DNA of 43,148 nt, from IMG/VR virus record IMGVR_UViG_3300026521_000571. One strand, given 5' to 3'. The notes beneath the pieces are model-generated. The model made no database searches. It was given only the letters and a program-made list of their open reading frames with translations, and was not told the DNA's origin. Position 1 is the first letter of the stretch. Each line of letters starts with the position of its first letter. Origin of the DNA: a virus (lineage: Duplodnaviria > Heunggongvirae > Uroviricota > Caudoviricetes). A program made the position numbers and the translations under genes. Below are positions 8,309-40,000 of the stretch, in pieces.

Positions 8309-9271
8309 TTGAAAGAGCTTGTATTGTTACTCTCAACAAGTTGTAATGCTAACTGTTCATTTTGCACTCAAAATCATCTCGGTAATGATATGACTATCGA
8401 ACGATTTAAAGAAATATTATTTCAAAATCCATCATTGAGTTCTTTGGAACTCTTTGGTGGAGAACCTCTTATTAATTTTAAAGTAATTAAAAATATATTT
8501 GATAATAAAACAGATAAAGAATTAATAGATAGACTTAGTGGTATTGAAAATATAAAAATTACTACGAATGGTTTACTATTAACTCAAGAGATATATGAGT
8601 TCTTTGTCAACCTGAATAAAAAAATAAAAACAACCATTGTGATTTCATACGATGGGATTTTTCAAAATCAACGTGGATATCAATTACCAACTAGGGTTAA
8701 GGATATAATTAAAAATGACGCTGGGACTAATAAACTTATTCGCATAAGTTTTGGAGTATATAATCATCCTGATAAACTATTAGATCAGTATTTGGGGATT
8801 AAAGAAGAGTTCTCTTTAACTCCAAATAATATTGATTTTTATTTTAATAGAAATTATTATGAATATCCAAATGATATAATTACAAAATTTATGTTTGGTT
8901 TTATGAAATTTCTAATATACTTAGATACATTTAGATTACCATTACCAAATAGATTAAAAGAGTATCATATGAGAATCTTGGGTGATATTGGCCCTTCTAG
9001 AGGATGTGGTGCTGGAATTGATCGTTTCGCATTTACACCAACTTCTAAATTAAATTGTGGAGTTATAAATAACTCAGAAAATATTGATTTACCAACAGAA
9101 GTTGAATTTAATCAAATGTGCTCGGGTTGTTCAATAATTAACCAATGTCCTCGAAAATGTCCAGCGATGTTAAAACACGCGTATGATAATAATCTAAATC
9201 AGGATAATATTTTATGTGACATTCATAAAATAATTGTCTCTAGTATTAAAAAATATTACACAAAGGAATAA
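8309..9271 (+). CDS. Radical SAM protein with SPASM-like C-terminal Cys cluster
   Basis: CNANCSFC, GGEP, TTNG, then CGAG and CSGCSIINQCPRKCP; TTG start with AAGGA RBS. Confidence 0.9.
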   Translation: MKELVLLLSTSCNANCSFCTQNHLGNDMTIERFKEILFQNPSLSSLELFGGEPLINFKVIKNIFDNKTDKELIDRLSGIENIKITTNGLLLTQEIYEFFVNLNKKIKTTIVISYDGIFQNQRGYQLPTRVKDIIKNDAGTNKLIRISFGVYNHPDKLLDQYLGIKEEFSLTPNNIDFYFNRNYYEYPNDIITKFMFGFMKFLIYLDTFRLPLPNRLKEYHMRILGDIGPSRGCGAGIDRFAFTPTSKLNCGVINNSENIDLPTEVEFNQMCSGCSIINQCPRKCPAMLKHAYDNNLNQDNILCDIHKIIVSSIKKYYTKE

Positions 9272-9275
9272 TATA

Positions 9276-9575
9276 ATGGAAGACCAAATAAAAACATATA
9301 CTGAAATAATTAATGAAATTAGACAAAAAGATTTAAACGATGATGTTGTAGAGGAGTATGCCAATCTTGATCCTTTTATCACTAGAACACTGGTTGGTGA
9401 AAATTTATTAGAATCGAGTTTTGCGTTAAGAGATAAAGAACCTCAAATATCAAAAGTATTATTGACTCTTGGAACTTCATTTTTGGAATTGGCTAATAAA
9501 GAGATTAATGTTAAAGAGAAATTGCGGAAAGCAATATCGGATAACCCAGATCTTTTGAAATTAATAAAAGATTAA
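9276..9575 (+). CDS. Small helical hypothetical protein between two radical SAM genes
   Basis: Start reassigned to ATG 9276 (AAGGA at 9263-9267); 99 aa. Confidence 0.7.
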   Translation: MEDQIKTYTEIINEIRQKDLNDDVVEEYANLDPFITRTLVGENLLESSFALRDKEPQISKVLLTLGTSFLELANKEINVKEKLRKAISDNPDLLKLIKD

Positions 9576-9592
9576 TAAAAGATTAATAAAAG
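9560..9592 (+). repeat. 11-bp tandem repeat x3 (ATTAATAAAAG)
   Basis: Three exact units spanning the stop of the 9276 gene and the spacer before 9601. Confidence 0.85.
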
Positions 9593-9600
9593 GGTAGTTT

Positions 9601-10755
9601 ATGAAACCATTCAATTTGACACTTCAAGTTACTAAAAATTGTAATCTTCAATGCAAGTATTGTTATGAGCTCGGACACCATAGAAAAGAAATACCAAACT
9701 TAACTGAGTATTTGAGTGCTCTGGAACTCTTCTTAAAAATATTTAAAAAGCGCAATCAAAAAATAAATTTAATTTATATAGGTGGGGAGCCAAGCCTTAA
9801 TCCCGATTTCATAGAAAAAACGTTAAATGTTGTGTATTCAACTGGATTATTAAATTCAGTAAATATAATTACAAATGGTATTTTAATTAATAATATTATA
9901 AAAAGTATAGAGCAATCAAAAATACCAGAAGAGAGTGTTAAAGAACTCATTAGTATTCAAATTTCTTACGATGGTAAATTAATAAATGATAAATATAGAT
10001 TAGCTAATGGTAATCCGACATCAGATATAGTTCTTCGAAGTATAAAAAAAATCAAAGAGTTATGTTGGAACATAACTCTTAAAAGTGTTTTGCCAGTTAA
10101 TGAGATTCATTTGGTTCCTGAAATAATAGAAGAATTCATTGAACTTGGGTTTAAATACCAACCCACCGAAGATTTTTCATACCTCGAACATAAATTAAAA
10201 GAATCACTAACTATTGAAGAATATATTAAATATTTTGATGAGCATTTTATAAAAGTTCTTAATATTGAATTAGAAAGATTGGATAATAATTTGCAGCCTA
10301 TTTCAAGATGGTTTTTAGATTACAGTTTATCTAAAGGAATTTCTGAATGTCAAGCTGGAATTAATTCATTATCAATTAATGAAAGAGGAATGGTTCAATT
10401 TTGTCAACAGATAGATTATACTAAAATATTACCTAAAAATCAAAATGATTTTAATTTTTATAATATTTATGATTTGCCTTCAATGAGTCAGTTAGAAACC
10501 AACCTTAATAATATTTCAAATAATTTTAAATGCAATCTTATTGAGTCAAAAAGAACACAAGATTATGGATGTAATGATTGTAGTGCTTTATTCTGTGTTA
10601 AATGTCCTCTCATAAATTATAAATATTCAAATAGTACAAAAAATATGTACGGACAATATATCGACGAACCATTTCGATGTATTTATTATAAAAATCTTTC
10701 GAAATTTTTATACACTTATGATTTAATTAAAGATAAAGATAAAGATAAAGGATAG
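9601..10755 (+). CDS. Radical SAM/SPASM protein
   Basis: CNLQCKYC, GGEPS, ITNG, SYDG, CQAG...FC, CNDCSALFCVKCP. Confidence 0.92.
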   Translation: MKPFNLTLQVTKNCNLQCKYCYELGHHRKEIPNLTEYLSALELFLKIFKKRNQKINLIYIGGEPSLNPDFIEKTLNVVYSTGLLNSVNIITNGILINNIIKSIEQSKIPEESVKELISIQISYDGKLINDKYRLANGNPTSDIVLRSIKKIKELCWNITLKSVLPVNEIHLVPEIIEEFIELGFKYQPTEDFSYLEHKLKESLTIEEYIKYFDEHFIKVLNIELERLDNNLQPISRWFLDYSLSKGISECQAGINSLSINERGMVQFCQQIDYTKILPKNQNDFNFYNIYDLPSMSQLETNLNNISNNFKCNLIESKRTQDYGCNDCSALFCVKCPLINYKYSNSTKNMYGQYIDEPFRCIYYKNLSKFLYTYDLIKDKDKDKG

Positions 10756-10757
10756 AG

Positions 10758-11858
10758 ATGTCTTTAAAAGAATGGCATACCGTTTTAAAGCGAGGTGATA
10801 CATCTGGGTGTGATGTTGTGTGTTATCCAATAGTTACTAGAACATATCACTTACCTTATAAACCAGAAGGGCATAATGACGAAAATTTATTGGATATATA
10901 TGACAATGCTTCTCGAGATGAATTAATATCTAGCACACATATCCAAACATTACTTAGATTGGTAAAATATCACGCAAATGATAGATTATATCATACCGAA
11001 TTTGATTATCCAATTCCTCCTGAACCATCAAATGATAATGATGATCCAGGAGCAGAACCTATAAAAATTGATTCATATGATGGTAATAAAATTAAAATCC
11101 ATTTATTGAATGATGAAACCTACTGGGAAAGTGGTGATACGGATATAACTTATAAAACAACAGATGATGGTACAAAATTCGCTTGGGATTATGAAAATGA
11201 ATTGCCTAATGAAAAAGATAAATTTAGTTTAGTTGAATCAAGGAATCCAAATTATGTAATTTATGAGTATCGAGCGGATCCTGATAAATATGAAGATCCA
11301 TATATTTCGAAAATAGTTATTCCTGATCAACCTGGAGAGTTTACTGAGTATATTGAATTCAGTGAAGATGATGATGACGATGCAGAAGATTCAATGTATG
11401 CTTATAATAATCCTGAAGATGTTGAAATTCGAGGGGAGTATTTAATAAAATTATTCGGTACAAAACTCGGTACATACGAACTTCAAGCGTTCTCTAATCA
11501 ACGAACAGATATTGAATACAGTATTGATTTTTATATCACTTATGGTGATAAAGAAGATGAAGATGATGATGGTAATCCTAAAATTAAGACTGATAAAAAG
11601 ACTGTAAAATTTAAATACAATCCAGTAATAACGTCTACTTATATAATTAATGCTTCTTATCCAGATAGAGTTAAATCATATTTAAAACATCTTGGTACTT
11701 TATCAACTTTAAATTACGGTGATTTCAACTCTGGTGACTTAGTAAGATCGGATGATTTTCGTAATTTATTAGAGGCTGCCATTGAAATGAGTAGAGTATG
11801 TAATTGCGTAAGTAATTATACAGATGATTCACAAAATATATGTGATTGTAATTATTAA
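10758..11858 (+). CDS. Acidic protein with terminal Cys motifs; candidate radical SAM substrate/tail-associated protein
   Basis: N-terminal SGCDVVCYP and C-terminal RVCNCVSNYTDDSQNICDCNY; directly downstream of two SPASM enzymes. Confidence 0.65.
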   Translation: MSLKEWHTVLKRGDTSGCDVVCYPIVTRTYHLPYKPEGHNDENLLDIYDNASRDELISSTHIQTLLRLVKYHANDRLYHTEFDYPIPPEPSNDNDDPGAEPIKIDSYDGNKIKIHLLNDETYWESGDTDITYKTTDDGTKFAWDYENELPNEKDKFSLVESRNPNYVIYEYRADPDKYEDPYISKIVIPDQPGEFTEYIEFSEDDDDDAEDSMYAYNNPEDVEIRGEYLIKLFGTKLGTYELQAFSNQRTDIEYSIDFYITYGDKEDEDDDGNPKIKTDKKTVKFKYNPVITSTYIINASYPDRVKSYLKHLGTLSTLNYGDFNSGDLVRSDDFRNLLEAAIEMSRVCNCVSNYTDDSQNICDCNY

Positions 11859-11880
11859 TTCAAATGGAAAAGAGGAAAAA

Positions 11881-12486
11881 ATGATTGAGACAAGAAAACA
11901 ATATGCTATGCTTCAAAATATAGGAAGTGGATTTGCAATAAACACAATAGTTCATCTTGAACCTTCGAAAGCTCAGATGATTCATGATGATATTATTCAT
12001 CCAATTTCAGAACTTGCAGCCTATACTGTTAATCAAGCTAATTCCAAAAAGAAAATACTCGGTATAAAAAAAGAAGCATTATTAAATCCAGTAATAGAAA
12101 TTGATGACTTATATGAACCATTCGACACAATAAAAGAAATAGATCATAAAAAACACATAACTCTTAAAAAAATATATGCTTTTTTATTTCAGAACTTAAC
12201 TTCAAAAGAAATGCTTGCTTTATATGAATTCCAAATACTAAATACAAGATTTGCGAGCCTCGGTTATTTTATCACTCCAGAAAATAAACAAGATATTTAT
12301 TTAAAAATCATTGAGGAAGATAACGATGAACTCCTTGATGATCTTGAGATATATTTAGATGCCAAAATAATTCTTGATAATTTATATAAACTGTATCGTA
12401 AGATACGTAAAGCTGAGAATGATTTAGTATATGCCGAAACTGACGAAGAAATTCAAGAGATTTATGATAAATTTATACAATCATGA
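11881..12486 (+). CDS. Conserved-looking phage hypothetical protein that accompanies radical SAM/Cys-motif modules
   Basis: Start reassigned to ATG 11881 (GAGGA RBS). LNTRFASLGYFITPENKQDIYLKIIE motif recalled from phage radical SAM loci, not verified. Confidence 0.65.
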   Translation: MIETRKQYAMLQNIGSGFAINTIVHLEPSKAQMIHDDIIHPISELAAYTVNQANSKKKILGIKKEALLNPVIEIDDLYEPFDTIKEIDHKKHITLKKIYAFLFQNLTSKEMLALYEFQILNTRFASLGYFITPENKQDIYLKIIEEDNDELLDDLEIYLDAKIILDNLYKLYRKIRKAENDLVYAETDEEIQEIYDKFIQS

Positions 12487-13526
12487 TTAACCGTAAAATA
12501 GGACTTTTAGTCCCAAATAACTCTAATCGGTTAAGAGGCCAACATACTCTACCAAATAGATTATTTGACTTCTTAGAATATTCTAAGAGTTCCAGTCAAC
12601 TGGAACTCTTACCTATAAATAATTTTTATAAATTGATAAAACATAATTCAATTCAAGAAATTAATGATAACTATCTTGGTTTTATTAATTTCAAACGCAA
12701 TTACCTCTCCTTACCTGATAAACTCTCTCCTATATTATCTAAAAAATTAAATGTTATGTATTACACCAACGCAATAAGCTCAATTAATTATAAAGAGTTC
12801 CAATTAACTCTAAGTAATGGTTTTTTCTACGCTCTCAAATATAATTTAAATTGGTGGTGGTCGTTCTTTCCAATAAATTCGGAAGAGTTCCAGTCGACTG
12901 GAACTCTTCCGTCACCAAAAACTATAGGCTATTATTTTAGGCGAGAAGGTTATAATAAAGAGTTAATTAGAACTGAACTTGATTATTTAAAATCAATAAA
13001 TAATGACAAGAATATTAATATAATTGGGATTGGAGACAAAAGAGTATTTTTGGACACAATTAATTTAATTCCTAATTTAAAATCAAAGTTGATTTTTTTA
13101 GAAAATAAACCAAGTTCAATTTTAGACCTAATTAATTCTCTAAAAAATTCTGGTGGGAGATATAGTGCTTTAGAACTCATTGATGACTCAATCCCAAACA
13201 CCTATTTTGAAATGAGATGGAATAATATTCCTACCGAAATAATTAATTCTGGGTTTGAGTTCAAAAGAACTGGAATACCTTCTGGGATTGATGAAATTAA
13301 TTATTTATTTGAACACCCAGATCATAAAAAAATTATAGAAATTCTGGCTGACAATTTTTATTTAATCCTTGATAAAAATTTTAGGAAAGAGTTATTTTGG
13401 ACTCAAACTCAATTAAAAAATAATTTTTATAAAAATAAAAATATACAAAATATAAACTTCCGAGAATTGTTTTGGGAAGCGATCGATAGTACACTTAATT
13501 TAATTAAAAAATGGAAGGAAATATAA
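12483..13526 (+). CDS. Hypothetical protein, possibly glycosyltransferase-fold
   Basis: 347 aa, ATGA-coupled; weak GT-B-like pattern (KTIGYYFRR, NIIGIGD); carries two long palindromes. Confidence 0.5.
   Translation: MINRKIGLLVPNNSNRLRGQHTLPNRLFDFLEYSKSSSQLELLPINNFYKLIKHNSIQEINDNYLGFINFKRNYLSLPDKLSPILSKKLNVMYYTNAISSINYKEFQLTLSNGFFYALKYNLNWWWSFFPINSEEFQSTGTLPSPKTIGYYFRREGYNKELIRTELDYLKSINNDKNINIIGIGDKRVFLDTINLIPNLKSKLIFLENKPSSILDLINSLKNSGGRYSALELIDDSIPNTYFEMRWNNIPTEIINSGFEFKRTGIPSGIDEINYLFEHPDHKKIIEILADNFYLILDKNFRKELFWTQTQLKNNFYKNKNIQNINFRELFWEAIDSTLNLIKKWKEI
12584..12611. repeat. 28-bp near-perfect palindrome (GAGTTC-N10-GAACTC type)
   Basis: taagagttccagt-ca-actggaactctta. Confidence 0.9.
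12880..12911. repeat. 32-bp perfect palindrome (GAGTTC-N10-GAACTC type)
   Basis: cggaagagttccagtcgactggaactcttccg. Confidence 0.95.
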
Positions 13527-14512
13527 TGGGAAATGGGAAATCATCGAAAAGGATTTTAAATATGAAAAAAGGTCCGGTAGGACCTGGTATATTTAAAAAA
13601 TATGATTTAGTAATTACTTATCAAAAATCAAATATAGATTATAAAAGAATCAGTGGGCATTTCTTCGAGGCCTTTGATTATTTAGTACACTTGAAAACCA
13701 AAGATCCATCTAAAAATATAGCTATTTTAATACAAGATGATTTAGATTTAAATCAAATAAAAATAGCTTTCGAAGATAAATATCTAGAACCAGATTTTAC
13801 GATTGATGTTTTTATTGACTTCGGAATTAAAAATCTAATAGCTAAAAATATTCTTCATTGTAGTGGTCTAAGTAAAACAGATGAATGTAATTATATAGGA
13901 AATATTTTTTCATTTAGGTGCGGACTTGAGCCATTGGATGGTATAGAATATACATTACTTCAAGATAACCGCATTTATACAGAAGATTATGGGTTTTCGA
14001 CACCTGAATCTCCAAAGATAATAAATTATATAAAAAAAGTAGCCTTTGGAAATTACAGGACTCCAGAAAATAACAGTAATCCAAATAAAACTAGAATTTT
14101 AATTTATGATAATACTCGCTGTAGAGAATTAAATGAGCAACTTGAGTCCAAAATAACTGAAGTGCTAAAATTTAGAGAAAGAATAGATCCAGATGTTAAT
14201 TATGAATTAATTAAAGTTGGATCGGATATTAAATTACCAGTCAATAACTTTTTGGGACAGTTTGATGAGTATTGGTACACACCAACTAAAAATAATTTTG
14301 ATTGTAGTCCTCGATTAATTCTTGAATGTTTTTTATTTGGCATCCCAGTTAAATATTTATTAACTACAGAATACCTAGAAAAAGACCCAGGTCTTAAATT
14401 TAGAATTCTTGACTTGAATTTAAATTATAAAAAATTAATATTGGATGATTCTGACCCTATTTATGATATTATTTTTAATAATTCAAAGACCGGAGATAAT
14501 TATGCTTTTTAA
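13526..14512 (+). CDS. Hypothetical protein, glycosyltransferase-like (GT-B-like C-terminus)
   Basis: Start 13526 fits AAGGA at 13515-13519; FDEYWYTP...FDCSPRLILEC resembles the GT-B C-terminal motif; weak. Confidence 0.5.
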   Translation: MGNGKSSKRILNMKKGPVGPGIFKKYDLVITYQKSNIDYKRISGHFFEAFDYLVHLKTKDPSKNIAILIQDDLDLNQIKIAFEDKYLEPDFTIDVFIDFGIKNLIAKNILHCSGLSKTDECNYIGNIFSFRCGLEPLDGIEYTLLQDNRIYTEDYGFSTPESPKIINYIKKVAFGNYRTPENNSNPNKTRILIYDNTRCRELNEQLESKITEVLKFRERIDPDVNYELIKVGSDIKLPVNNFLGQFDEYWYTPTKNNFDCSPRLILECFLFGIPVKYLLTTEYLEKDPGLKFRILDLNLNYKKLILDDSDPIYDIIFNNSKTGDNYAF

Positions 14513-15569
14513 TAATGAGTTCAGTGAACACCATAATTTATATAATAAAATTACTAAAAGTCGTGAAGAAGATGAAATTCATGATCTTGATATAAATTTT
14601 GAAAATATTACGAGAAAAGTTAAATTAGATGTTGGTAAAAAATGCAACGCCGGTTGTTTTTTCTGTTATTATAAATCAGAGCTCAACTCCCCGATGAAGA
14701 CATTAGGTGTTCTTAAAAAAGAAATTGATCTTATGAAATCGATGCGATTTGAAGAAATAGAATTAAGTGGAGGTGAGCCGACGATTCACCCAGATTTTAT
14801 TGAAATAATTAAATATATCGATTCAATTGGATTAAAAGCATCATTTGTCACAAACGCTTTTGAATTAAATTTAAATGTTCTAAAAGAACTCAAACCATAT
14901 CTAAATGATATTTTAATTAGTATTCAAGGATATCAAGAAAATCACAATAAGATACTTAGACTTCCGGAGGCCTACAATAATATTTTAGAAGTAATTGATG
15001 CTTGTAATAATTTAGACATTCCAGTTAGAATTAACACAACGGTTCATAAAAATAATATAGATAATTTATTATATATTTACGAGGATATTAAATCCAAAGT
15101 AAGAACCTGGAATTTAATTCCTATTAATTATTGGGATGATGCCAGAAAGTTAAAGAGGGAAATGCCTTATGAAAAAATATCAGAAGTTCTAGAAAAAATT
15201 TATGAAAGAGTTATGAATTCAGTCGCGACTGAATTCATAACTGGAGTTGGTCAAAAATCAACTCCAGTTATGTTGCAACATAACTCTAATCAATTAAATT
15301 TAAATATTAGATATTATCCTCTTTGTAAAATAGATCCGAAGTATAAACACTTCGTCAAAAATTATTGGCATCAATATTATGATAAAGAAGACTGGCATCC
15401 TTTTTTTATGGATACAAAAGATTTAATTTCTCATAAACAGGAATGCTTTATTCAAGAAGTTAAATCATGTTATATAAGAGATCTTCTCCAAAAGAGAAAA
15501 CCTTATTATAAAGACAAAGCTTGTCTTAACTGTCCTGATTTTATAATTTGTGATGGATATAAGCCATGA
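14502..15569 (+). CDS. Radical SAM protein with C-terminal Cys motif
   Basis: CNAGCFFC, LSGGEPTIHP, VTNA, CLNCPDFIICDG; start 14502 follows GGAG. Confidence 0.9.
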   Translation: MLFNNEFSEHHNLYNKITKSREEDEIHDLDINFENITRKVKLDVGKKCNAGCFFCYYKSELNSPMKTLGVLKKEIDLMKSMRFEEIELSGGEPTIHPDFIEIIKYIDSIGLKASFVTNAFELNLNVLKELKPYLNDILISIQGYQENHNKILRLPEAYNNILEVIDACNNLDIPVRINTTVHKNNIDNLLYIYEDIKSKVRTWNLIPINYWDDARKLKREMPYEKISEVLEKIYERVMNSVATEFITGVGQKSTPVMLQHNSNQLNLNIRYYPLCKIDPKYKHFVKNYWHQYYDKEDWHPFFMDTKDLISHKQECFIQEVKSCYIRDLLQKRKPYYKDKACLNCPDFIICDGYKP

Positions 15570-16258
15570 TTTATATACTAATTCCGAGCACTAGAGGTAT
15601 GGATTACCTTGGAAGATTATTAAAATCACTCAATAAAATAAAAATACCAAAAAATATTTTTATTATTAGAAATGTTTCAAAAGAACTCATTCCGGATAAT
15701 TTTTACCAAAAGTTCAAAGAGACACTCGGGACGGACGATTCTTTAAAAATAAAAACCATTCCTAAAGATACAAACCCAAATAAAAATAACTTGGGTTTGG
15801 TTTATAAAGAACTCTTTGATTCAGTACCAAAAGATAATTATTTTTTATTTCTCGAAGATGATGATTATATTTATAATGAATTAACAATGAGTGATTTTAA
15901 ACTCATTGAAGATAAAAAATTAGTCTTGTGGTTTTATAAATCAGAAATAAATAATCCGGATGTATTAAACTGGATGCGGGCTGTACGATATTTTGAAAAA
16001 CACAAAGATATTAAATATATATCAGAAGATTTTAGTAAAAATAGTTTTCAAATCTCATGTTTTATGGCTAAAAAGATACAAACTCTCGATAACTTCATCT
16101 GGGATAATAATTTAGAAAATGACTATAAATTATTTCAGGAGCATTTGAGTTCTTTTGAACTCAAAGATATTTTAATTTTAAAAAAGATTATGTTTGTGCA
16201 GGGGATAGGGGATAATATTAGCTTCCCAAAATATAATAAGGATTTAAGATGGCAATAA
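15566..16258 (+). CDS. Glycosyltransferase family 2-like protein
   Basis: N-terminal YILIPST strand and YFLFLEDDDY (DxD) motif. Confidence 0.65.
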   Translation: MIYILIPSTRGMDYLGRLLKSLNKIKIPKNIFIIRNVSKELIPDNFYQKFKETLGTDDSLKIKTIPKDTNPNKNNLGLVYKELFDSVPKDNYFLFLEDDDYIYNELTMSDFKLIEDKKLVLWFYKSEINNPDVLNWMRAVRYFEKHKDIKYISEDFSKNSFQISCFMAKKIQTLDNFIWDNNLENDYKLFQEHLSSFELKDILILKKIMFVQGIGDNISFPKYNKDLRWQ

Positions 16259-17211
16259 TATTCGAAGGGGTTGATCATAAAGTTCAAAGGCTTTATATAC
16301 ACTGGGATATAACTACAGTTTGTAATTTTGATTGTAGTTATTGCTATGCTAAAAAAGAGTACAGTCAAAAAGAACTCTGGTTAAAAGAAGATACCGTTGA
16401 AAATATAAAAACAGTTATAAAGGCTATTTCTATAAGCACATTACCTGTGTTTTTAGGATTACTTGGAGGAGAACCAACTCTTTCAAAACATTTCGAATTT
16501 ATTTTAAATGAGTTCAAAAGAACTCATTTCTTTGAAAAAGAAGATAATAAATTATATATTACTACGAATGGAAGTAAGGAACTATGTTGGTTTATAAACC
16601 AACATAGTTCCGATTTTTATAATAATAAAGTTATGTGGTTATTTTCTTGGCATTCGGCGCATATGTCTGGTAATTCAAATAAAGAATTTAAAGAAAAAAT
16701 AGAAGTTCTTTTGGGGAAGGGTTATAAGGTTAAAGTTAATCTTATGATACCTTTGACTAAAGAAAAGTGGGCTGACTTAAAGGAACTCTCTTTAGAGTTA
16801 ATTAAATTGCAGAAAAATTTTACCAGCCTTATTTTACACCCTCATTTTATATACAAGAATGAACACCAAATATATGAATACCCAAAAGATACAAAAACTT
16901 ATTTTAAAGAAATTTTTGAAAATATCCCAAAAGAGTTCCAAATGACTCAAATGACTCAAAAGACACTTTTAAACGACATTGAAATATTTGAGACAGGTCT
17001 TAATAATTTCAAGGGTTGGGATTGTTATTTAAATAACTATGAGATTAATCTAGGTGCAATTGTATCTAAATTTTGTGTTCAAGAAACAACCAATCTTAAA
17101 AATAATATAACGTTCTTTAAAAAAATAAAAAAAGTGGTTCCAGTTATTTGTGAACATAGTCAATGTTCATGTGATGGACTCTTAAAAATACGAAAAGAAA
17201 AGGAAATATAG
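16249..17211 (+). CDS. Radical SAM protein
   Basis: CNFDCSYC, LGGEPT, ITTNGS, C-terminal CEHSQCSCD. Confidence 0.9.
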   Translation: MAIIFEGVDHKVQRLYIHWDITTVCNFDCSYCYAKKEYSQKELWLKEDTVENIKTVIKAISISTLPVFLGLLGGEPTLSKHFEFILNEFKRTHFFEKEDNKLYITTNGSKELCWFINQHSSDFYNNKVMWLFSWHSAHMSGNSNKEFKEKIEVLLGKGYKVKVNLMIPLTKEKWADLKELSLELIKLQKNFTSLILHPHFIYKNEHQIYEYPKDTKTYFKEIFENIPKEFQMTQMTQKTLLNDIEIFETGLNNFKGWDCYLNNYEINLGAIVSKFCVQETTNLKNNITFFKKIKKVVPVICEHSQCSCDGLLKIRKEKEI

Positions 17212-17213
17212 AA

Positions 17214-23232: not shown

Positions 23233-23239
23233 AGGAAAA

Positions 23240-25542: not shown

Positions 25543-25553
25543 ACCCTTCTGTG

Positions 25554-29260: not shown

Positions 29261-29292
29261 CTTCAATTCCTTTAAAAATAAATTACAATTAA

Positions 29293-29320
29293 GAGTTAGA
29301 GTTCAAAAGAACTCTAACTC
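29293..29320. promoter_or_regulatory. Inverted repeat (12-bp arms) upstream of clpB containing the GAGTTC-N4-GAACTC motif
   Basis: gagttagagttc-aaaa-gaactctaactc in the intergenic leader; regulatory role is inferred. Confidence 0.55.
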
Positions 29321-29420
29321 AAAGCAAATGGATCCAATTTTGCGTAAGGGAATTTATACGCGTATTATCGAATAAAAAAATTCGACACCCAATACATCTA
29401 TGACCCCAGAGGGAGAGGCT

Positions 29421-29987: not shown

Positions 29988-30007
29988 TATATTCTCCTTA
30001 TGAGATT

Positions 30008-30113
30008 ACACCCAATGAAAAGGGCTGCAGCATTACCTGCACTATAATATGTCTATTATTGACAACTATAAAGAACCTACCCGATGTAAGTTCAATAATA
30101 TTATTTATATACT
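30008..30113. repeat. 106-bp direct repeat, copy 1 (divergent intergenic region)
   Basis: Matches 36882-36987 with 5 mismatches. Confidence 0.95.
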
Positions 30114-30171
30114 TAATATATTTATTCTAAAACGAACATATAATAATTAAATTACATTTTAAAGGAAATAT

Positions 30172-31455
30172 ATGTCAAGTACACGAAAGATTATAACAGG
30201 AGCCGCTGGCTTCATTGGAAGAAATTTAACGAAAGCAGTTCTTTTGAACTCAACACAAGATGATACTATTGTATGTATTGATATTCAAGATATGACATCT
30301 CTGGGTTTCGAAGAAGCTAATATCAATGGAGCTAATTTAATACTAATTCAAAAAAATATGAAAGATATAACACCAGATGAATACAATATAATTTTTGATG
30401 TTCAAGAGGACCAAGACGAAGAAGAACAGAAAGAGTTCTTTTTGACTCATTTGGCGAGTTCAGTCGGAGTAGATAAAATCCTAGAATCTCCCCAGGCAAT
30501 TACCGATGATCTAATAATGAACTCAAATTTAATTAATTATTTAAATAATTTACCGGATAATATAACAGGCCGTGTTGTATTTACAAGCTCCAGTGAAATA
30601 TATGGTGAGCAAACAGTCCTCGAAGAAACCACTGATCTTAAAATGCAATCACCGGAAAACTATTTAAGAGGGATATACGCAAGCCAAAAACTTATAACAG
30701 AACATCTATTTTTAAATTCTTTAATTAATTCAAAGACAGATGTAAGAATTCTTAGGTTATTTAGTATAACTGGGCGCGATCAATCAACTGATTTCGTAAC
30801 TCCGAAATTGATTGAACAAGCAGTGAATAATCAAGATATTACTATTTATGGGGATGGTTCACAATCAAGAGCATTTATGCACATCGATGACCTAATAAAT
30901 ATTATTCTTCATGAAGAGTTATTTAGCACTCTTAGTGATGGAACCGATAATAAAATTATTAACGCAGCGAACCCAAGAAATTTAACTACAATTTTTCAAT
31001 TAGCTAATTTAATAAAAACATTAACAGCAAGTTCAAGCGAAATAGTTTTTGAAGATGGACCAATCGGAGAAACATCAAGAATCCCTCAAATCAATAGACT
31101 TAATAAATTCTATAGACCTCAGATAGATCTTTCGACAATTATTAAATCAATAGTCGAGACACAATTCCCAGAAAAAGAACTCAAAGAATTGAATTCAATC
31201 AATATAAATACAACAGAAGTTCAAGAAGATGAAATTGATTACATTGAGTTCGAAATAACTGGAAATACAGAACCCGAAGCAACCATTATAATTGAATGGG
31301 CTGATTCTTCATTGGATTCAACCGAAGCTGATGCCGAAGGAAATTGGACAATCGAGGTTAAAAAATTAAAAGAAGATGTTCAAAATGAAGTGGCTACAAT
31401 TACAGCGCAATTGAATACAATTGTATTCAGCGCAATTAATTTTAGGGTTGAATAG
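30172..31455 (+). CDS. NAD-dependent nucleotide-sugar epimerase/dehydratase fused to a C-terminal bacterial Ig-like domain
   Basis: ITGAAGFIG, HLAS, FTSSSEIYG, YASQK, GDGSQSRAFMHIDD; C-terminal ITGNTEPEATIII...ADAEGNWTIEV. Confidence 0.88.
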   Translation: MSSTRKIITGAAGFIGRNLTKAVLLNSTQDDTIVCIDIQDMTSLGFEEANINGANLILIQKNMKDITPDEYNIIFDVQEDQDEEEQKEFFLTHLASSVGVDKILESPQAITDDLIMNSNLINYLNNLPDNITGRVVFTSSSEIYGEQTVLEETTDLKMQSPENYLRGIYASQKLITEHLFLNSLINSKTDVRILRLFSITGRDQSTDFVTPKLIEQAVNNQDITIYGDGSQSRAFMHIDDLINIILHEELFSTLSDGTDNKIINAANPRNLTTIFQLANLIKTLTASSSEIVFEDGPIGETSRIPQINRLNKFYRPQIDLSTIIKSIVETQFPEKELKELNSININTTEVQEDEIDYIEFEITGNTEPEATIIIEWADSSLDSTEADAEGNWTIEVKKLKEDVQNEVATITAQLNTIVFSAINFRVE

Positions 31456-31478
31456 AGTTGAATAAAACGGAGTAGATT

Positions 31479-32171
31479 ATGAATGTAATTATCGCGGCAC
31501 ATATCGATGATGTTGAAATAGGAATGGGAGGTATTCTAGATAAACTAGCCTCCTTAAAAGAAGAGACGAAAATAATTATTTTAAGTTCAGGAAGAAAGAG
31601 TCAGTCAGAAACCAACATAGTGCGAGAAGAAATCTTTAGAAAGAACATTTCATTTTTTAAAGGCCGGGAGTACTCTGGTCGCTTCGAGTGCTTTGTCAAC
31701 CCAATGCCGGTTGATTTGGAGTTCCATATTTATAGAGATCAACTAAGAGAATTTCTCGAAGGCACTTATAAAAACATTTTATTAGAAATACCAGCTGATG
31801 AAATTCTTAGAGCATTTACAGTATATCCTGATAATCATAATGATCATAAGATTGCTTCAGAATTAACGGATACTTGTGTGCGTTTGAACTCAAACCTCCC
31901 GAAAAAACCAAATTTGTATCTCAAATATTTTATTCCATCAAGTGCCGGTTTCGATATTCCGAAAAAGAATCTTTTTTATTTTAATTTCAGTTCTTTTGCA
32001 CTCAAGAAGAAGATGATTCAGAATTATAAAAATCTTTTCGATGGTCCATCGATGGATACCAAATATATTAAACTCTTCAATAAAATCCAAGGTCGTTTTA
32101 TTAATAAAAAGTTCGCGGAGGTATTTCATGCCGAATACATCAATGGATACTTTGGTAATTTATTTTCCTAG
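31479..32171 (+). CDS. PIG-L/LmbE-family N-acetylglucosaminyl deacetylase
   Basis: AAHIDDVEIGMGG and DNHNDH motifs; GGAG RBS. Confidence 0.85.
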   Translation: MNVIIAAHIDDVEIGMGGILDKLASLKEETKIIILSSGRKSQSETNIVREEIFRKNISFFKGREYSGRFECFVNPMPVDLEFHIYRDQLREFLEGTYKNILLEIPADEILRAFTVYPDNHNDHKIASELTDTCVRLNSNLPKKPNLYLKYFIPSSAGFDIPKKNLFYFNFSSFALKKKMIQNYKNLFDGPSMDTKYIKLFNKIQGRFINKKFAEVFHAEYINGYFGNLFS

Positions 32172-32820
32172 GAAGAGTTCTGTTGCAACAGAACTCTTCC
32201 GCCAGAATCCAAAAGAAGAAATTCCAGATTTAAATTCACTAAAAGAATTATATAAATACCTCAAATCTCCCAAGGCAATGAAAGTAAAAGAGATAATAAT
32301 TATTGATTTTACAAATCCTATTTTTTCGGAACGTCGATATCCTCGTAAAACTACGAACCTAAAAATTACAAAAGGTATATATAATTTTTTAAAGTATATT
32401 AACCAAACATCCCAGAATTTTCCAAAAATAAAATACGTTTTTTTATCTTCAGTAGGAGTTCTAGACCGATATTTTAATTTACCAGGAAGCTCCCAAAAAC
32501 AACTACGTTATAATCTCGATAAAAAACAGACAGAAGAGTTCTTAAGAACTCAAACGTTTATAAATTATATTATAATTAGATTACCTCTCTGTCCAGTTAA
32601 AAAAGAAAATCTCTTGATAAAAAATATAGGAAAGAGTTCAAAAGAACTCTTTAACTTAGATCTAGGGATCCCAGTACTTGCTATAAATAAAATAAAATTA
32701 TTTTTCGAGGCAATAAAAAATCCGGATAAGAGTGCCGAGGCACTCTTATCCGTCGAGTTCATTACAATCGAAGATACATCCAATCCTGAAAAAACTAAAG
32801 AATTTCTTCTGAGGAATTAA
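32128..32820 (+). CDS. Degenerate SDR/epimerase-like protein
   Basis: YVFLSSVGV, YNLDK, YIIIRLP; no GxxGxxG; start 32128 follows GGAGG. Confidence 0.55.
   Translation: MPNTSMDTLVIYFPRKSSVATELFRQNPKEEIPDLNSLKELYKYLKSPKAMKVKEIIIIDFTNPIFSERRYPRKTTNLKITKGIYNFLKYINQTSQNFPKIKYVFLSSVGVLDRYFNLPGSSQKQLRYNLDKKQTEEFLRTQTFINYIIIRLPLCPVKKENLLIKNIGKSSKELFNLDLGIPVLAINKIKLFFEAIKNPDKSAEALLSVEFITIEDTSNPEKTKEFLLRN
32171..32200. repeat. 30-bp perfect palindrome (GAGTTC-N10-GAACTC type)
   Basis: ggaagagttctgttgcaacagaactcttcc, starting at the last base of the PIG-L stop codon. Confidence 0.95.
32723..32752. repeat. 30-bp inverted repeat with GAGTGC-N4-GCACTC core
   Basis: cggataagagtgcc-ga-ggcactcttatccg. Confidence 0.9.
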
Positions 32821-34576
32821 TAGCCTCTTGGGCTAAATCTTTAAAGACATTCAATAGATGTATATTTGGTGCATCAAAAACATTAAACCCAGCTTTATGC
32901 AAAGCTAAATAACTATTTGAAATTTCAGATAGTTCACTATCCGAAAATCCAGAATTTATTTTCGAGTAATATCTTGTCCCTATTTTAATATCTCCTGTAT
33001 TTGAATCCAAATAATGTATTGTAATTTCAGGTCCTATGAAATTAAGCAACTTATTTAAAACACAATATCTGGATTCAACCCGCAGTTTATGCGAAGTGGA
33101 AATATGACTGAAGATCATTACTGCAGGCCCATCTTCCCTATGCAAAACCCCAAAAGAATACCATGTAAATTTAAGTTGAGTTCGGCCGAGGTATTTTATA
33201 ATTGCTGGCCCATTATCTCGATGCAAAACATCAAACTGGTAGAAATGAAGAGATAATTTTTTTATTCGACCAGTTGATTTAACCTGATGTATTTCAATCC
33301 TAGCCGGTCTATTATCTCGATGACACTTACCAAAAAGAAAATATTGATATCTATAAAAATTAAGATTATCTTCATATACTCTTTTTTCATAAGCAGGCCC
33401 ATCTTCTCGATGTCTATGATTAAATCTATACCATATTTTTTTAACTTGATTGATTTTTCCATAAGAATCAAATATGTAATTTAAACTCGCTGGCCCACCA
33501 ATTCGATGATGTTGACCAAATTTATACCACTTCTTAGTCACTGACAATACTCGTTGCCCAGTATTCTTTCTCGCTATAACAATACTTGCAGGACCATCTT
33601 CTCGATGCAGTAATCCAAATGAATAGAATTCCTTACGATATTCTTCATATTCCTCGGTTATAAACATTCCATGTTTTATCTTGAATTTGTCATAGATATA
33701 ATCTCTCTTGGCTGAAGCACCAAATTTAGACATATTTGATATATGCAAATCAAATGCTTTCTTTGTAAAATGAATACCAAAAAGAAAATATCTAACCTTA
33801 ACAGTCCTATTAGAGAGTACAATATATTCAGCAGGACCATCTTCTCTATGTTTATAACCAAACTGATAAAAATACATTTTTTTAATATCAGAGCCCCTTC
33901 TTTCAACTACAGTAGGACCATTCTCGTTATGCATTTTACCAAATTTATACCAATTATAAATTCTATATATGTGATCAACCACTGGATAAAAATCAATATA
34001 AGCTGGTCCATCCTCTCGATGATATTTATTAAATTGATAATAATCCTCCCTAAAATATTTGGTGTCGTCTTTAATTGAGAGTAATTTTACTGCAGGCGCA
34101 TTTTCTCTATGTTTGAAACCAAATACAAAAAACCAAATTTTAGTTTGCAAGTTCCCATAATCATCTATAACTGCAGGCCCATTTTCATTATGAAAATTAT
34201 TAAATTTTAACCATTGTTGGCTTTTTGCGTTGTTGGTTTTAGTCATGTAAAAAGGATGCTCATCACAATGATCAAAACCGAATTGACAAGGTTGTTTTGC
34301 ATCAGGAGTAATACTCATTTGGCATCCAAAAAAATTTTTAGAATCCGGAGAATCAAATTCAACAAGATAATCATGAAACCTAAGAGGCTTGTTATAATTT
34401 CTACAGAAATCAAAAAATCTCTGAAGTTCTCGATCACTTGATTCGAGATCTAAAAAATATTTTTCAATTAGATTCTCAAAACCACCTGTGAAATTTTCAA
34501 GTATTTGGTTGATATTTGGCCGTAATTTTTCAAACGGCCCAATATCAACCTCCTTTATTTCATTAAATATTTTCAT
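32795..34576 (-). CDS. HREDGPA-repeat protein (about 11 repeats)
   Basis: Repeats HNENGPA, HRENAPA, HREDGPA, HRIGGPA, HRDNGPA etc.; MORN-variant-like beta repeats. Confidence 0.85.
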   Translation of the reverse strand: MKIFNEIKEVDIGPFEKLRPNINQILENFTGGFENLIEKYFLDLESSDRELQRFFDFCRNYNKPLRFHDYLVEFDSPDSKNFFGCQMSITPDAKQPCQFGFDHCDEHPFYMTKTNNAKSQQWLKFNNFHNENGPAVIDDYGNLQTKIWFFVFGFKHRENAPAVKLLSIKDDTKYFREDYYQFNKYHREDGPAYIDFYPVVDHIYRIYNWYKFGKMHNENGPTVVERRGSDIKKMYFYQFGYKHREDGPAEYIVLSNRTVKVRYFLFGIHFTKKAFDLHISNMSKFGASAKRDYIYDKFKIKHGMFITEEYEEYRKEFYSFGLLHREDGPASIVIARKNTGQRVLSVTKKWYKFGQHHRIGGPASLNYIFDSYGKINQVKKIWYRFNHRHREDGPAYEKRVYEDNLNFYRYQYFLFGKCHRDNRPARIEIHQVKSTGRIKKLSLHFYQFDVLHRDNGPAIIKYLGRTQLKFTWYSFGVLHREDGPAVMIFSHISTSHKLRVESRYCVLNKLLNFIGPEITIHYLDSNTGDIKIGTRYYSKINSGFSDSELSEISNSYLALHKAGFNVFDAPNIHLLNVFKDLAQEAINSSEEIL

Positions 34577-36180: not shown

Positions 36181-36860
36181 TATGATTTCTTGGATTTCTT
36201 GAATTCGTCTGGGTAGACGAATTCATATGTATTAAGCCAGAAGTCCAGGCCTTTGGCCTGATCAACATATTTCGCCATCGGTGGAATCGTTATCTTACGG
36301 CTCCCCCTCCAACCACCGAGAATATCTAACATTTTCATGTAGATATTCTCGGTGAACGTCACCTGTCGTCGGTCTAATTTCTTGAGGAGGCTGATGCCGA
36401 TGGCGACATCCTCCTCTAAAATCTTGTCACATAATGTGACCTGGAAATCGACTGGGTGGCCGGCCCAGTTGAAAACTCTATATTTATGGAGACTGGTTGT
36501 CCCCATGTATAAATAGCATCCGTTGAAGCTGCTAATCTCGAAGGTCGCCACCCCTTCGAGATATTTAATAGCAGCTTCAAAGATGCCGCTATCCGTTGTA
36601 AAGAAGTCATAATCTGACTCCTGGGTTGTCAAAGATGACCCCGCTAATCGTGACCCTGAAAGAGTTAGACCTAACTCTTTCAGGTTCATTTCAATTTTAT
36701 GCATATCCTCCAATCTGGAGATCGGGTTGATCTCCTTTTTCTCGGTGCCGTACCATGACGCACCGTTTGAAAATTCCGGGAATTCAATCCCTGAATTCTC
36801 AAAATAGTTAACAGCAGCCTCTAAATTCTTTAATAACTTTTTATCATTAATTATTTTCAT
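36180..36860 (-). CDS. Pol-beta-superfamily nucleotidyltransferase; GC-elevated, hairpin-rich gene
   Basis: LSGSRLAG...SDYDF (GS...DxD) motif plus later VDFQV; GGAGG RBS. Confidence 0.72.
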   Translation of the reverse strand: MKIINDKKLLKNLEAAVNYFENSGIEFPEFSNGASWYGTEKKEINPISRLEDMHKIEMNLKELGLTLSGSRLAGSSLTTQESDYDFFTTDSGIFEAAIKYLEGVATFEISSFNGCYLYMGTTSLHKYRVFNWAGHPVDFQVTLCDKILEEDVAIGISLLKKLDRRQVTFTENIYMKMLDILGGWRGSRKITIPPMAKYVDQAKGLDFWLNTYEFVYPDEFKKSKKS

Positions 36861-36881
36861 TATGTCCTCCTTACGGAAATA

Positions 36882-36987
36882 ACACCCAATGAAAAGGGCT
36901 GCAGCATTACCTGCACTATAATATGTCTATTTTAGACAACCTTAAAGAACTTACCCGATGTAAGTTCAATAATATTATTTATATACT
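36882..36987. repeat. 106-bp direct repeat, copy 2 (divergent intergenic region)
   Basis: Matches 30008-30113 with 5 mismatches. Confidence 0.95.
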
Positions 36988-37045
36988 AACTGAAGTAATT
37001 CTAAAAAACAAAGGATTCATGCAACATCAAGATATAGGAAAATAA

Positions 37046-40000
37046 ATGAATATAAGATTAGTATTTAACTCAAGAACTGGAATTCTTCGAGCAGAGAGAA
37101 GCGCTCGCTCGAACCCAAGAATAAAAAAACGGGTTCCATTTAATATGACAAGAAACTTTTGGAGCATCCCAGCGTATTCAATACTTCAGCAAATTTCTAT
37201 GCTGGATATGAAAATTCATAAAAGAAACCCACCTGGATTTCGAAAGGCTGCTAGAAATTACTATAGTCTATTACCACAAGATATTCCATTATATTTATTG
37301 GAGTTTGAGGAATTCTATAATGCTTTTGAAGATTATCTCTGGATTCAAGAACCTCAAGGATTGCGAAGACTTCTGAAGAAAGAAGTCGAGAAAACAATAG
37401 GTGTAAAACCGGCAAGTCAAAAAGCAACAATTGATGGAGTAGCCACAAGTATTTCGATTATTCTTGAAACAGGAACATCTCAATTAAAAGAAAATTTTAA
37501 AAAGCAGATAAAGAAACCATTTGATGTGTACTCAATTTTTTGGATGTATAAGACAGTTGATAAATTCTTTGGAGCGGTTAATAAGGCATCGCTTGTTTTG
37601 AACCCGAACTACAAAAAAATTATGCGAGCCGATCCAAAACGAGAACGCATTCTGAAATATTTTAATGAATCGATGTTGTATAGAAATACCACAAAATCCC
37701 CACGGGAAATCACGTACTCTAATCTTTTGACTCTTTTGAAGAATCAATCACAATCTGGAATAAAGGTTAATCTGTATTCAAATACAGGTGCTCCTTTTAA
37801 ATACATGAACTTCGAGAAATTACTTCTAGAAGATGGTAATGAGCAGTTGGTTGAAAAAGCACTCGTTGTTTATAATAATGATGATAGTTTCTTCGAGTTC
37901 AGAAGTACTTATTATTTCTTCGATCCAGAAGAAGTAAAGAAAAAACACGATGATATTTTTAATTATTTAATGAAGCCTGAGTTGCAAGATTTCATCGATG
38001 GTCTTAGGAACCTCAAAGATAAAAACACAAGCCTGAAAAATAAGGTTCCTGTTAAAAAATTAAAAGAGACAAGTTTTACAGGAACCCTGCAAGAGCATCA
38101 AGAAGAAGCATTAAGTTGGGCTTGGAGTTTAATTGAACAAGGAGCACCAGGTTTAATCCTAGCCGACGAGATGGGCATGGGAAAAGCATTAGAAAACAAC
38201 ACACCGATTAAAATTCCAGGCAGTTGGAAAAAAATTAAAAATATTAAAGTTAATGATTATGTTATTGGTAGAGATGGGTTTCCAACAAGAGTAACTGGCG
38301 TTTACCCACAAGGGATTCGCCAAATGTATAAAATTATTTTTGACGATGGACGTGAAATTGAAGCGGATGCTGAACATCTTTGGACAGTATTTATAGAAGA
38401 GAAAAATCAACAGGTTTCAACTACTAAAGAAATAATGAATTTATTGGAAAATAATAAATCAATATCTATACCGACTATAATTCCAGAATCAAATATAGAC
38501 ATAGAATCTAGATTAAAATATTTAAAATCATTAACTCAACATAGATCTCAAGAAATAATTTTAAATGATTTTGATCAAACCGGTATCAATGAATTAAAAG
38601 AATTAATTTATAGTTTAGGTGGTACATTAAAGATAATCAAAAATAAATTACAGTTTGAGTTCAAAAGCACTCTTGATATAAAAAATATTGAACCATCAAG
38701 AAAAACCGAGGCAACATGTATTTCAGTAGATAATCAAGATAAATTATTCGTCGCAAAAGATTATATTACAACACACAACACTATCTCGACAATTTCTTTC
38801 TTGAGTTCTCTGATGAAATATAAAAATTTCAAAACTATCTTAATTATATGTCCGAGTTCAGTTGTATCTGTTTGGGAAAATGAGCTAGCTCGCTTTGATC
38901 CAAAAGCAGCGAAGAAAATTGGCTCAGGAATCCAAATAATGAGCTATGAAAGAGCCATCCGAAATTCACCTAAGAAAGTAGATTTACTAATCCTAGATGA
39001 AGCCCAGAAGATTAAGAATAATAATACTTTGGCTTTTAAAAACATAAGCTTAATAGAAAAGAAGTTCGTGTGTATTTTAACTGGAACACCGATTGAAAAT
39101 AAAGTCGATGATCTATTTAGCCTCCTTCAAGTAATTAACCCAAGCGCTTGGCATCTATTTAAGATTATGAAAAAATCTTACAAAGATGTAGAAATGGTTA
39201 CTAAAATAAGGGAAGTAATAGATCCGATTTATTTACAACGACATAAGACATCGAATCAATTGAAAGCGAAGATGACTGTAGAAGAAGTTTTCATCCCCGC
39301 TCTTGATATTGAAAAGAAAATAACGAAAGAAATTAAAAAAGTATTCTCTGATAAAATGATTAAATTGAATGCTTCAAATAATCATGATTTTTATCAGACA
39401 CAAGTTGCTTTGACTGGACTTCTACGATTAAGACAAGCGGTTAGTTTGCCTAGTCAACTACCTGATGAATTAATTGAACACTTTGATCCAAAAGTCGGTA
39501 GAGTTGCTCAACATGTTGATCCAAGTAAAGCTAAAAAGTTGGTAGAGATTTATAAAAAAATACATCAGAATAAGCAGAAGGTTGTTGTATTCACTATGTT
39601 TTCTGGGACTATAAAATATCTCAAAGTGCTTCTAGAAAAAAATGGAGCCAATGTATTGACTCTCTCTGGACAAGATAGTAGTCAAAAAAGAAAAATCATG
39701 ATTGAAGAATTTCAGAGACCGGATTCAAAATATGATGTTTTTATAATTATGCTTAAAGCAGGAAATTCTGGGATTACCTTAACTAACGCAAATAATGTTG
39801 TACTCTATGACTTATGGTATAATCCGGCTGTAGTTGCACAAGCACTTGCTAGAGTCCATAGAATTGGTCAACAACTTGATGTTACTGCTTATATATTAAT
39901 TACTCAAGATTCAGTTGACGAAGCAATTAATAAAATATTCTTGAATAAAAATAAATTAATTGATGCTTTTAGTAAACCAAAAGACGCGTTGAAACCAGAT

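Follow-up and report, generated by a model that had tools for sequence, protein, structure and literature searches.

Introduction

Among the described systems closest to a family of dispersed palindromes are the repetitive extragenic palindromic (REP) sequences and bacterial interspersed mosaic elements (BIMEs) of bacteria, together with their REP-associated tyrosine transposases (RAYTs; Di Nocera et al. 2013, PMC3733652). The subject of this study is a 16-bp dyad, GAGTKC-N4-GMACTC, dispersed through a 43,148-nt stretch of Caudoviricetes DNA (IMG/VR record IMGVR_UViG_3300026521_000571), the whole of which is called the window below. The likeness to REP/BIME lies in many dispersed imperfect palindromes of 20-40 nt, in lineage-specific families, in small clusters and in the apparent use of some copies as terminators or RNA-stabilising stems. 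In contrast to REP sequences, which are extragenic elements of the bacterial chromosome, the phage dyads are mostly intragenic and replace sequence without indels; they bear no GTAG/CGTC tag at the stem end, the conserved part being GAGTKC/GMACTC with variable flanks, and no RAYT gene was seen in the available phage sequence. The highly iterated palindrome HIP1 of cyanobacteria (GCGATCGC) is likewise a palindrome far above chance that occupies coding sequence in all frames, varies in abundance by lineage and has no agreed function. HIP1 is a contiguous 8-mer tied to a methyltransferase site and common to host and phage, whereas the present motif is an interrupted 6-4-6 dyad, often extended to perfect hairpins of 20-34 bp, and was not above control in the bacteria sampled.

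Three further systems invite comparison. In quasi-palindrome mutagenesis, clustered changes perfect an imperfect inverted repeat; T4-type replication is the classical setting of these template-switch errors, which were reportedly first shown in phage T4 rII by Ripley and by de Boer and Ripley. As in T4, the palindromes studied here show joint changes of both arms and inverted duplication of neighbouring sequence; to our knowledge, however, the T4 process is known for rare single-locus mutations and not for filling a genome with one dominant repeat family. Operator and centromere dyads are exemplified by the KorB OB sites of RK2, the SopB sites of N15, parS, the Noc and SlmA sites and the stoperators of mycobacteriophages. 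Such arrays resemble the phage family in spreading tens of 13-16-bp sites, some of them genic, across a replicon, all to be read by one protein; they differ in having a known reader, stable positions and no long perfect palindromes, whereas here no reader was found and positions are not conserved between lineages. Uptake sequences, finally, which in Neisseria and Haemophilus double as terminators when paired, share with the dyad an over-represented word, its occurrence in coding DNA in all frames and the use of inverted pairs as terminator stems, but are mostly single oriented words, whereas the phage word stands essentially always in a dyad of fixed spacing.

We show below that the dispersed dyad is a real and strong observation, and that its palindromes are renewed by matched changes in both arms and by inverted duplication. 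At a probability of roughly 0.45, we tentatively read it as a lineage-specific hairpin repeat family of REP/HIP-like kind that fold-back template switching creates and maintains, some of its members serving as terminators; such a family would renew itself and would not be a fixed set of control sites.

Results

Copy number and placement of the dyad

An earlier sequence-only reading of this DNA had located 15 exact copies of GAGTKC-N4-GMACTC and quoted eight one-mismatch copies; a pattern scan of the window returned the same 15 and all eight. Its expectation that chance would yield far fewer than one copy was borne out, with 0 exact copies across 100 dinucleotide-preserving shuffles, and sites with up to two mismatches from GAGTTC-N4-GAACTC numbered 46 against 1.07 expected. 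Thirteen of the 15 exact copies lie within open reading frames (ORFs), with all three frames represented, and two are intergenic (25521, 29299), again as proposed. The same placement was seen in a second contig, IMGVR_UViG_3300026521_000527 (137 kb, GC content 29.7%; hereafter G001), where 24 of 26 exact copies are in ORFs. When synonymous codons were shuffled with proteins and codon usage kept, 2.1 copies were left of the 15 in the window and 2.2 of the 26 in G001, the survivors being essentially those outside the shuffled genes. Since the genic copies vanish in these shuffles, the constraint acts on nucleic acid and not on protein, as the sequence-only reading had held. Conserved amino-acid motifs as the cause of the dyad are ruled out by the same shuffles, and the low identity among the radical-SAM paralogs of the window (24-38%) also weighs against a shared protein motif as its source.

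Sites frequently stand in small clusters, 70-130 bp apart. None of the 13 genic window copies falls in a gene with a homolog in G002, the complete 281-kb genome of a relative introduced below (P=0.002); in G001, no depletion of dyads from genes with a G002 homolog was found.

Palindrome changes between close strains

Change within the palindromes could be followed in L214, a 4.1-kb ENA contig that was reached via P0124, a cluster mate of the 79% ortholog P0123, and that is 85.8% identical in nucleotide sequence to positions 11869-16057 of the window. L214 carries the same motif and the same 22-mers as the window. Within the window hairpins, six pairs were altered on both sides relative to L214, and all six were still complementary, with 0 non-complementary double changes; shifted controls gave about 1.8 double changes of any kind, and about 0.5 compensatory pairs would be expected against the six seen. 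At 12584-12611, the inner arms read CAGT/ACTG in the window and GAGT/ACTC in L214, and G001 has exactly the L214 version (GAGTTCGAGTGCACTCGAACTC) at one of its own sites, in a gene that is not homologous.

Six indels distinguish the window from L214, and both internal ones of at least 9 nt are inverted copies of adjacent sequence. The 9-nt indel at about 12572 creates TCTTAGAAT followed directly by ATTCTAAGA, and in the 39-nt indel at 15250-15288 a loop is joined to a reverse-complemented copy of the 14 nt upstream, and a second fold-back gives rise to AGTTATGTTGCAACATAACT. Core positions of the dyad changed in 11 of 96 cases, against 14% overall, and are thus not conserved above average.

Anatomy of the dyad and its hairpins

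Full half-sites occur in the window at a spacer of 4 (n=15) or 10 (n=4) only. The inner 10 nt are palindromic in all four spacer-10 copies, which gives perfect palindromes of 22-32 bp such as GAGTTCCAGTCGACTGGAACTC. The flanks often lengthen the dyad, as the first reading had noticed: 19 of the 41 exact copies in the window and G001 are extended by at least 3 bp (3-11 extra pairs, of non-conserved sequence), compared with 2.5% of random positions. At flank positions 3-6 all four Watson-Crick pair types occur, at about twice the frequency predicted from the marginals, so that the flanks covary. Among the copies folded as single strands, perfect ones were stable, from -4.7 kcal/mol (unextended) to -16 kcal/mol. 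The core was profiled over 125 sites with at most two mismatches in the window and G001, and reads G (88%), A (96%), G (98%), T (99.6%), then T/G, then C/A.

Perfect hairpins as a class are also in excess. With a stem of at least 8, the window holds 62 against about 15 in Markov controls, and 12 of the 62 include the core; the corresponding counts are 173 against about 58 in G001, 236 against about 92 in G002 and 461 against about 147 in G007, a further relative, an excess of 2.5-4-fold in all four genomes tested. A second palindrome family, AGAGTTATGTT-SS-AACATAACTCT, recurs at 10055, 15266 and 23677; its C/G variant stands at 32171. A GC-richer gene at 29413-29987 (about 40% GC) is crowded with perfect hairpins that are unrelated to the dyad, among them a 22-bp palindrome in which GCGGCCGC occurs. 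No conserved word such as a promoter box was found in the flanks, no Rfam family matches the dyad or its hairpins, and neither the motif nor such arrays in phages are described in the literature searched.

The individual sites, in window coordinates, are as follows.

8437-8452: exact dyad in radical-SAM gene 8309-9271, frame 2; flanks do not extend it
9714-9729: exact dyad with a G.A mismatch at pair 5, in radical-SAM gene 9601-10755, frame 2
10055-10080: second family, AAGAGTTATGTT-GG-AACATAACTCTT, 12-bp arms; genic
12584-12611: 28-bp palindrome TAAGAGTTCCAGT-CA-ACTGGAACTCTTA of the spacer-10 class; inner arms compensatorily changed in L214
12880-12911: perfect 32-bp palindrome around GAGTTCCAGTCGACTGGAACTC; imperfect in L214
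15209-15242: perfect 34-bp palindrome with AGTTATGAATTCAGTCG arms; three compensatory pair changes relative to L214
15250-15288: 39-nt in-frame indel relative to L214, including the palindrome AGTTATGTTGCAACATAACT at 15266-15285
16147-16162: exact dyad, 9-bp stem after extension, in gene 15566-16258
16510-16525: exact dyad, 10-bp stem, in radical-SAM gene 16249-17211, frame 0; single-stranded DNA fold of -8.8 kcal/mol
17367-17382: exact dyad with a T.C mismatch at pair 5, in gene 17214-17942
18069-18100: perfect 32-bp palindrome around GAGTTCCAGTGCACTGGAACTC, in gene 17942-18790
21674-21689: exact dyad, 8-bp stem, in radical-SAM gene 21296-22354
23677-23700: second family, perfect 24-bp AGAGTTATGTTGCAACATAACTCT, in gene 23240-23743
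24461-24476: exact dyad in a variable loop of the transketolase-N-like protein; no indel relative to five homologs
24843-24858: exact dyad just past the conserved C-terminus (KFHY) of the transketolase-N-like protein; junction hairpin in the ORF extension
25094-25109: exact dyad with a G.A mismatch, flanks extended by 3 bp, in ORF 24891-25484
25515-25542, minus strand: intergenic perfect 28-bp palindrome with a GAGTGC core, followed by a T-run; contains dyad 25521
29293-29320, minus strand: intergenic hairpin between two minus-strand genes, 12-bp stem, GAGTTC core, T-rich tail
32171-32200: second family (variant), perfect 30-bp palindrome GGAAGAGTTCTGTTGCAACAGAACTCTTCC
32536-32551: exact dyad, a fully palindromic 16-mer, in ORF 32041-32820
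32634-32649: exact dyad, 9-bp stem, in ORF 32041-32820, 98 nt after the 32536 copy
32723-32752: palindrome with 14-bp arms around GAGTGCCGAGGCACTC, in ORF 32041-32820; single-stranded DNA fold of 13 pairs, -14 kcal/mol
38657-38672: exact dyad with a T.C mismatch, unextended, in the intein region of the SNF2 helicase gene

Sites in orthologous genes

Where a gene is conserved, its sites fall on variable residues; most sites replace a variable protein segment and align to orthologs without an indel. In the gp52-like topoisomerase of G001, SIEFLRTQN aligns gap-free to T4 gp52 (8ylu), and in a DNA-polymerase-like gene CTAGAGTTCCAAGGAACTCTAG (LLEFQGTLED) in G001 stands opposite ILRYEGKLED in G002. 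Alignments of G001 and G002 orthologs at the sites are mostly contiguous, with low local identity. In the transketolase-N-like protein of the window, EEFQRT lies opposite ADDQKK or SDQDRL in five homologs, again with no indel, and the 24843 copy sits where the homologs have their stop codon. This ORF (24227-25484 region) is without the stop codon that follows KWHY in the five homologs and continues for 54 codons via the junction hairpin into the next gene; in a relative, L215, the same two genes overlap by 13 nt instead.

Across 68 ortholog pairs of G001 and G002, hairpin positions coincided once, against 1.2-1.8 coincidences expected, in a test that used all GC-containing hairpins (stem of at least 7) and not the motif sites alone. 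In one pair (G001 6586-7287 and G002 193779-194519), the GAGTTC hairpin of G001 and the TTGCTC..GAGCAA unit of G002 occupy the same spot, within a variable linker at the N-terminal end. Both members of this pair also have another long hairpin, unrelated to these, further upstream; overall, coincidences are not above chance.

Related phages and candidate hosts

The 26 exact dyads of G001 compare with 0 for a reversed-pattern control. G001 and the window have no DNA similarity to each other, and identical 22-mers occur at non-homologous loci of G001 and of the window or L214. Seventy of the 131 G001 genes match G002, in synteny with its positions 160-281 kb and 12-33 kb, and the window matches G002 at 126-150 kb. 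By these sequence matches G001 belongs to the same phage family as the window, and the two could even be separate, non-overlapping stretches of one genome or of two very close ones; G001 was therefore not counted as an independent lineage. An IMG/VR search for close relatives of a G001 gene returned G001 itself only.

Seven other members of the family (G002-G009; capsid proteins 48-61% identical) hold 0-1 dyads of the window type in 37-281 kb each. The search for a dyad of their own covered G002 and G007. G002 (IMGVR_UViG_3300028534_000514; loci L198-L212, also L066 and L068) carries TTGCTC-N5-GAGCAA 26 times, often as tandem GAGCAATTGCTC units. Small ORFs (MIIFEQLL...) carry some of these dyads at their 5' ends. 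Near-identical repeated flanks surround six of the dyads, of which four fall in called ORFs, and one of those ORFs matches a T5orf172/DUF7487-like gene in the annotation of L068. Paralogous genes of this T5orf172/DUF7487-like kind, whose flanks are conserved, account for part of the G002 dyad, which is not a perfect analogue of the window dyad. In G007 (IMGVR_UViG_3300026484_000007; loci L219-L232), GATCTT-N3-AAGATC occurs 75 times, with two GATC sites per copy; 20 copies are intergenic, where they are about 4-fold enriched, and 55 are genic, in all frames. Many of the intergenic G007 copies are near-identical and resemble canonical terminators (AAAAGTGATCTT-TNA-AAGATCACTTTTTT). The centre of the dyad thus differs by lineage, being 4 nt in the window, 5 nt in G002 and 3 nt in G007.

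The abundance of the motif in a candidate host phylum was gauged in 301 Campylobacterota genomes, which hold 0-4 dyads each, equal to the reversed-pattern control, a result that speaks for the sampled phylum. The commonest 16-mer, compared with 185,579 species genomes, gave scattered single matches, with no dense contig among the at least 119 matches listed.

The phage and its gene content

The window is part of a large uncultured hydrothermal-vent phage of about 280 kb with a T4-like capsid, as judged by sequence comparison. Hydrothermal-vent metagenomes carry window DNA. Among the products encoded in the window are a portal of T4-like type, a gp23-like capsid protein, a ClpB-like ATPase, an epimerase and a prohead protease (Peptidase_S77-like in the precomputed annotation of contig L064), together with radical-SAM paralogs, at least nine of them in a run. 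More than 140 relatives of the capsid protein lie on metagenomic contigs that reach 230-310 kb; the capsid protein had no tblastn match among the INPHARED phage records. The portal protein alone found no relative in IMG/VR, and the long 22-mer had no match in IMG/VR or JGI metagenomes.

Positions 8309-25484 form a 17-kb block without counterpart in G002, between a tail-fibre-like gene and ClpB. In this block lie the radical-SAM paralogs, nine or more and divergent, along with numerous ORFs that have no family and the split transketolase-like pair. The SNF2-family helicase gene (37046-40054) is split by an intein, with a Hint domain from about residue 392 and helicase motifs again from about residue 644. 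On the minus strand, 32795-34576 encodes a 593-aa protein of MORN-variant-like repeats (W/Y-x-F-G-x-x-HREDGPA), the sole window protein with tblastn matches in G001 (E up to 1e-5), where a cluster of paralogs lies at 24.9-32.3 kb. Contigs of one metatranscriptome and three metagenomes were compared over 14000-33999 and were too short and fragmentary for RNA ends, strands or site-level strain differences. In the one metatranscriptome run (a biofilm sample), short contigs match parts of 20182-31124 at 99% identity or more, and the phage or its DNA was therefore present in the RNA library.

Discussion

The sequence-only reading had left two options open, an array of binding sites for a dimeric phage protein and a family of hairpin or REP-like elements. 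We favour the latter, because the flanks covary, the arms change compensatorily, the internal indels of 9 nt or more are inverted duplications, hairpin positions are not conserved between lineages and the dyads of sister lineages differ, with centres of 3, 4 and 5 nt. The family behaves like REP or HIP1 elements, but its copies are mostly intragenic, and neither the GTAG/CGTC tag nor a RAYT gene of REP proper was seen in the available sequence. During replication, the nascent strand would copy the other arm and then return to its template, as in quasi-palindrome template switching. Fold-back of this kind would create and lengthen palindromes and keep them symmetrical, overwriting a patch of sequence, usually without a change in length. 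Copies would persist where harm is small, at intergenic spots as terminator stems and in variable protein segments in any frame, and one sequence would become dominant in each lineage, through copying between dispersed copies (microhomology) or through a lineage-specific factor that reads GAGTKM in each arm. Part of the family may be useful, for example as terminators, including terminators of antisense transcripts.

Several observations count against such a fold-back origin. Fold-back uses local sequence and alone does not explain one core at about 125 places in the window and G001; the shared core, the invariant AGT and the independent arms therefore call for preferential copying between copies or a lineage-specific reader in addition, and no enzyme or factor was identified in the sequence examined. 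The core arms do not covary (G,G 4 against 3 expected; A,A 4 against 3.2 expected), their deviations concentrate at position 5 (T>G) and position 6 (C>A), and AGT at positions 2-4 is near invariant. Because the arms vary separately around this AGT, the core sequence itself is read or copied and not merely paired; neutral decay matches this pattern less well than does a sequence reader or a bias in copying. Three exact copies (9714, 17367 and 38657) are mismatched at pair 5 and unextended and are unlikely to be stable hairpins, and 38657, the only one of them folded, reached just -1.1 kcal/mol. Compensatory change cannot separate selection on structure from arm-to-arm copying, and the comparison with the close strain spans 4.2 kb only.

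The dimeric-protein option, though doubtful, is a possible account. The dyads would form a binding or cleavage array for a lineage-specific DNA-binding protein, each subunit reading GAGTKM on duplex DNA, and the longer palindromes would be a by-product of genome-wide template switching; a KorB/ParB/Noc-type regulator or organiser, or the phage's own type II topoisomerase, whose 4-bp stagger would match the 4-bp centre, are candidate readers under this same explanation. The half-site centres lie one helical turn apart, the spacing is fixed (spacer 4 in 15 of 19 window dyads), and the independent arms with their near-invariant AGT/ACT and a core profile resembling a position weight matrix are what a dimeric reader would leave. 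The unextended sites with a mismatched pair 5, which are unlikely to fold stably (38657 was folded), keep their sequence; sites stand in clusters 70-130 bp apart; the sequences are lineage-specific among related phages, as co-evolving pairs of protein and site would show; and G001 encodes T4-type topoisomerase subunits. A duplex binder, however, would not need covariation of the flanks, and in the spacer-10 variants, where the inner part is palindromic without exception, the two half-sites would point to opposite sides of the helix. Relative to L214 the core (11/96 changed) is not conserved above the gene average (14%), sister lineages have 3-, 4- and 5-nt centres, and hairpin positions are not conserved. 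A reader gene of the helix-turn-helix, ParB, ribbon-helix-helix or similar type was not found by Pfam among the window ORFs or the 51 G001 genes without a G002 homolog, nor was an HUH candidate in the available sequence, which is less than the whole genome. A combined account, in which each lineage has a private reader (a protein, perhaps of replication, topoisomerase or nuclease type) and a matching site array whose positions turn over while their number is kept, the reader itself triggering fold-back renewal, appears unlikely; it would amount to self-marking or organisation of the genome, with reader and sites co-evolving as lock and key.

It is also rather improbable that the sites are, as a family, selected RNA hairpins, namely gene-end terminators, intragenic antisense terminators or barriers to RNA decay, homogenised within each lineage. 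The hairpin with a minus-strand T-run at 25515-25542 looks like an intrinsic terminator that closes the minus-strand run to which ClpB belongs, and the intergenic G007 copies, with their 4-fold enrichment, point the same way; in the window, intrinsic terminators were recognised only there and, loosely, at 29293-29320. Antisense-side T-runs accompany genic copies in G007 (48% against 29%, P=0.002) and in the window with G001 (34% against a 24% background), a weak signal that would also be expected if genic copies had been copied from bidirectional terminators; sense-side T-runs at genic copies are not enriched (7% against a 13% background). Sense-strand loops are purine-rich in 25 of 33 copies against 20.4 expected (borderline, P ~0.06), and two G001 copies have sense UUCG loops. 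Most genic copies, on the other hand, are without a T-run, G.U in sense orientation is not above A.C (18 against 14), the invariant AGT in the stem is not explained by RNA folding, the 38657 copy is unstable, and neither RNA ends in the contig-level data nor an Rfam match were found. Spread as miniature mobile elements of the REP or MITE (miniature inverted-repeat transposable element) kind, by a RAYT/IS200-type HUH transposase, would suit short high-copy palindromes in lineage-specific families, identical 22-mers at non-homologous loci and a 39-nt presence/absence polymorphism that includes a family member, but is highly improbable. Insertion is rejected for most sites, since they show no indel relative to orthologs; no target-site duplications, direct flank repeats or conserved ends were seen; the 39-nt indel is accounted for by inverted copying of adjacent sequence; and the Y1 (HUH) transposase profile PF01797 had no match in G001, G002 or G007 (control genomes matched) and none among the window ORFs. 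Improbable in the extreme is a motif imposed by the host, whether linked to uptake, Chi, methylation or repair, or by restriction-modification pressure. Cyanophages do share HIP1 with their hosts, and the G007 dyad holds two GATC sites; against this stand the control-level counts in Campylobacterota and the scattered single hits among the matches listed for other species genomes. Iterated palindromes have been mentioned in a jumbo cyanophage (PMC8093824). The protein-site array and the selected RNA hairpins may each overlap with the preferred reading of a fold-back repeat family.

REP, HIP1 and other iterated palindromes have long been a puzzle in bacterial genomes; an element of this kind is found here in a phage with almost no non-coding space, and so within its proteins. 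Three related lineages with three dyads offer a natural experiment on how such families arise, are replaced and shape proteins, and the renewal can be seen directly in the strain pair of the window and L214, in inverted duplications as well as arm-to-arm changes. Should there be a reader protein, the family would represent a phage system of a new type, for self-recognition or for organisation of the genome; should there be none, it would clearly exemplify how one mode of replication error shapes proteins genome-wide.

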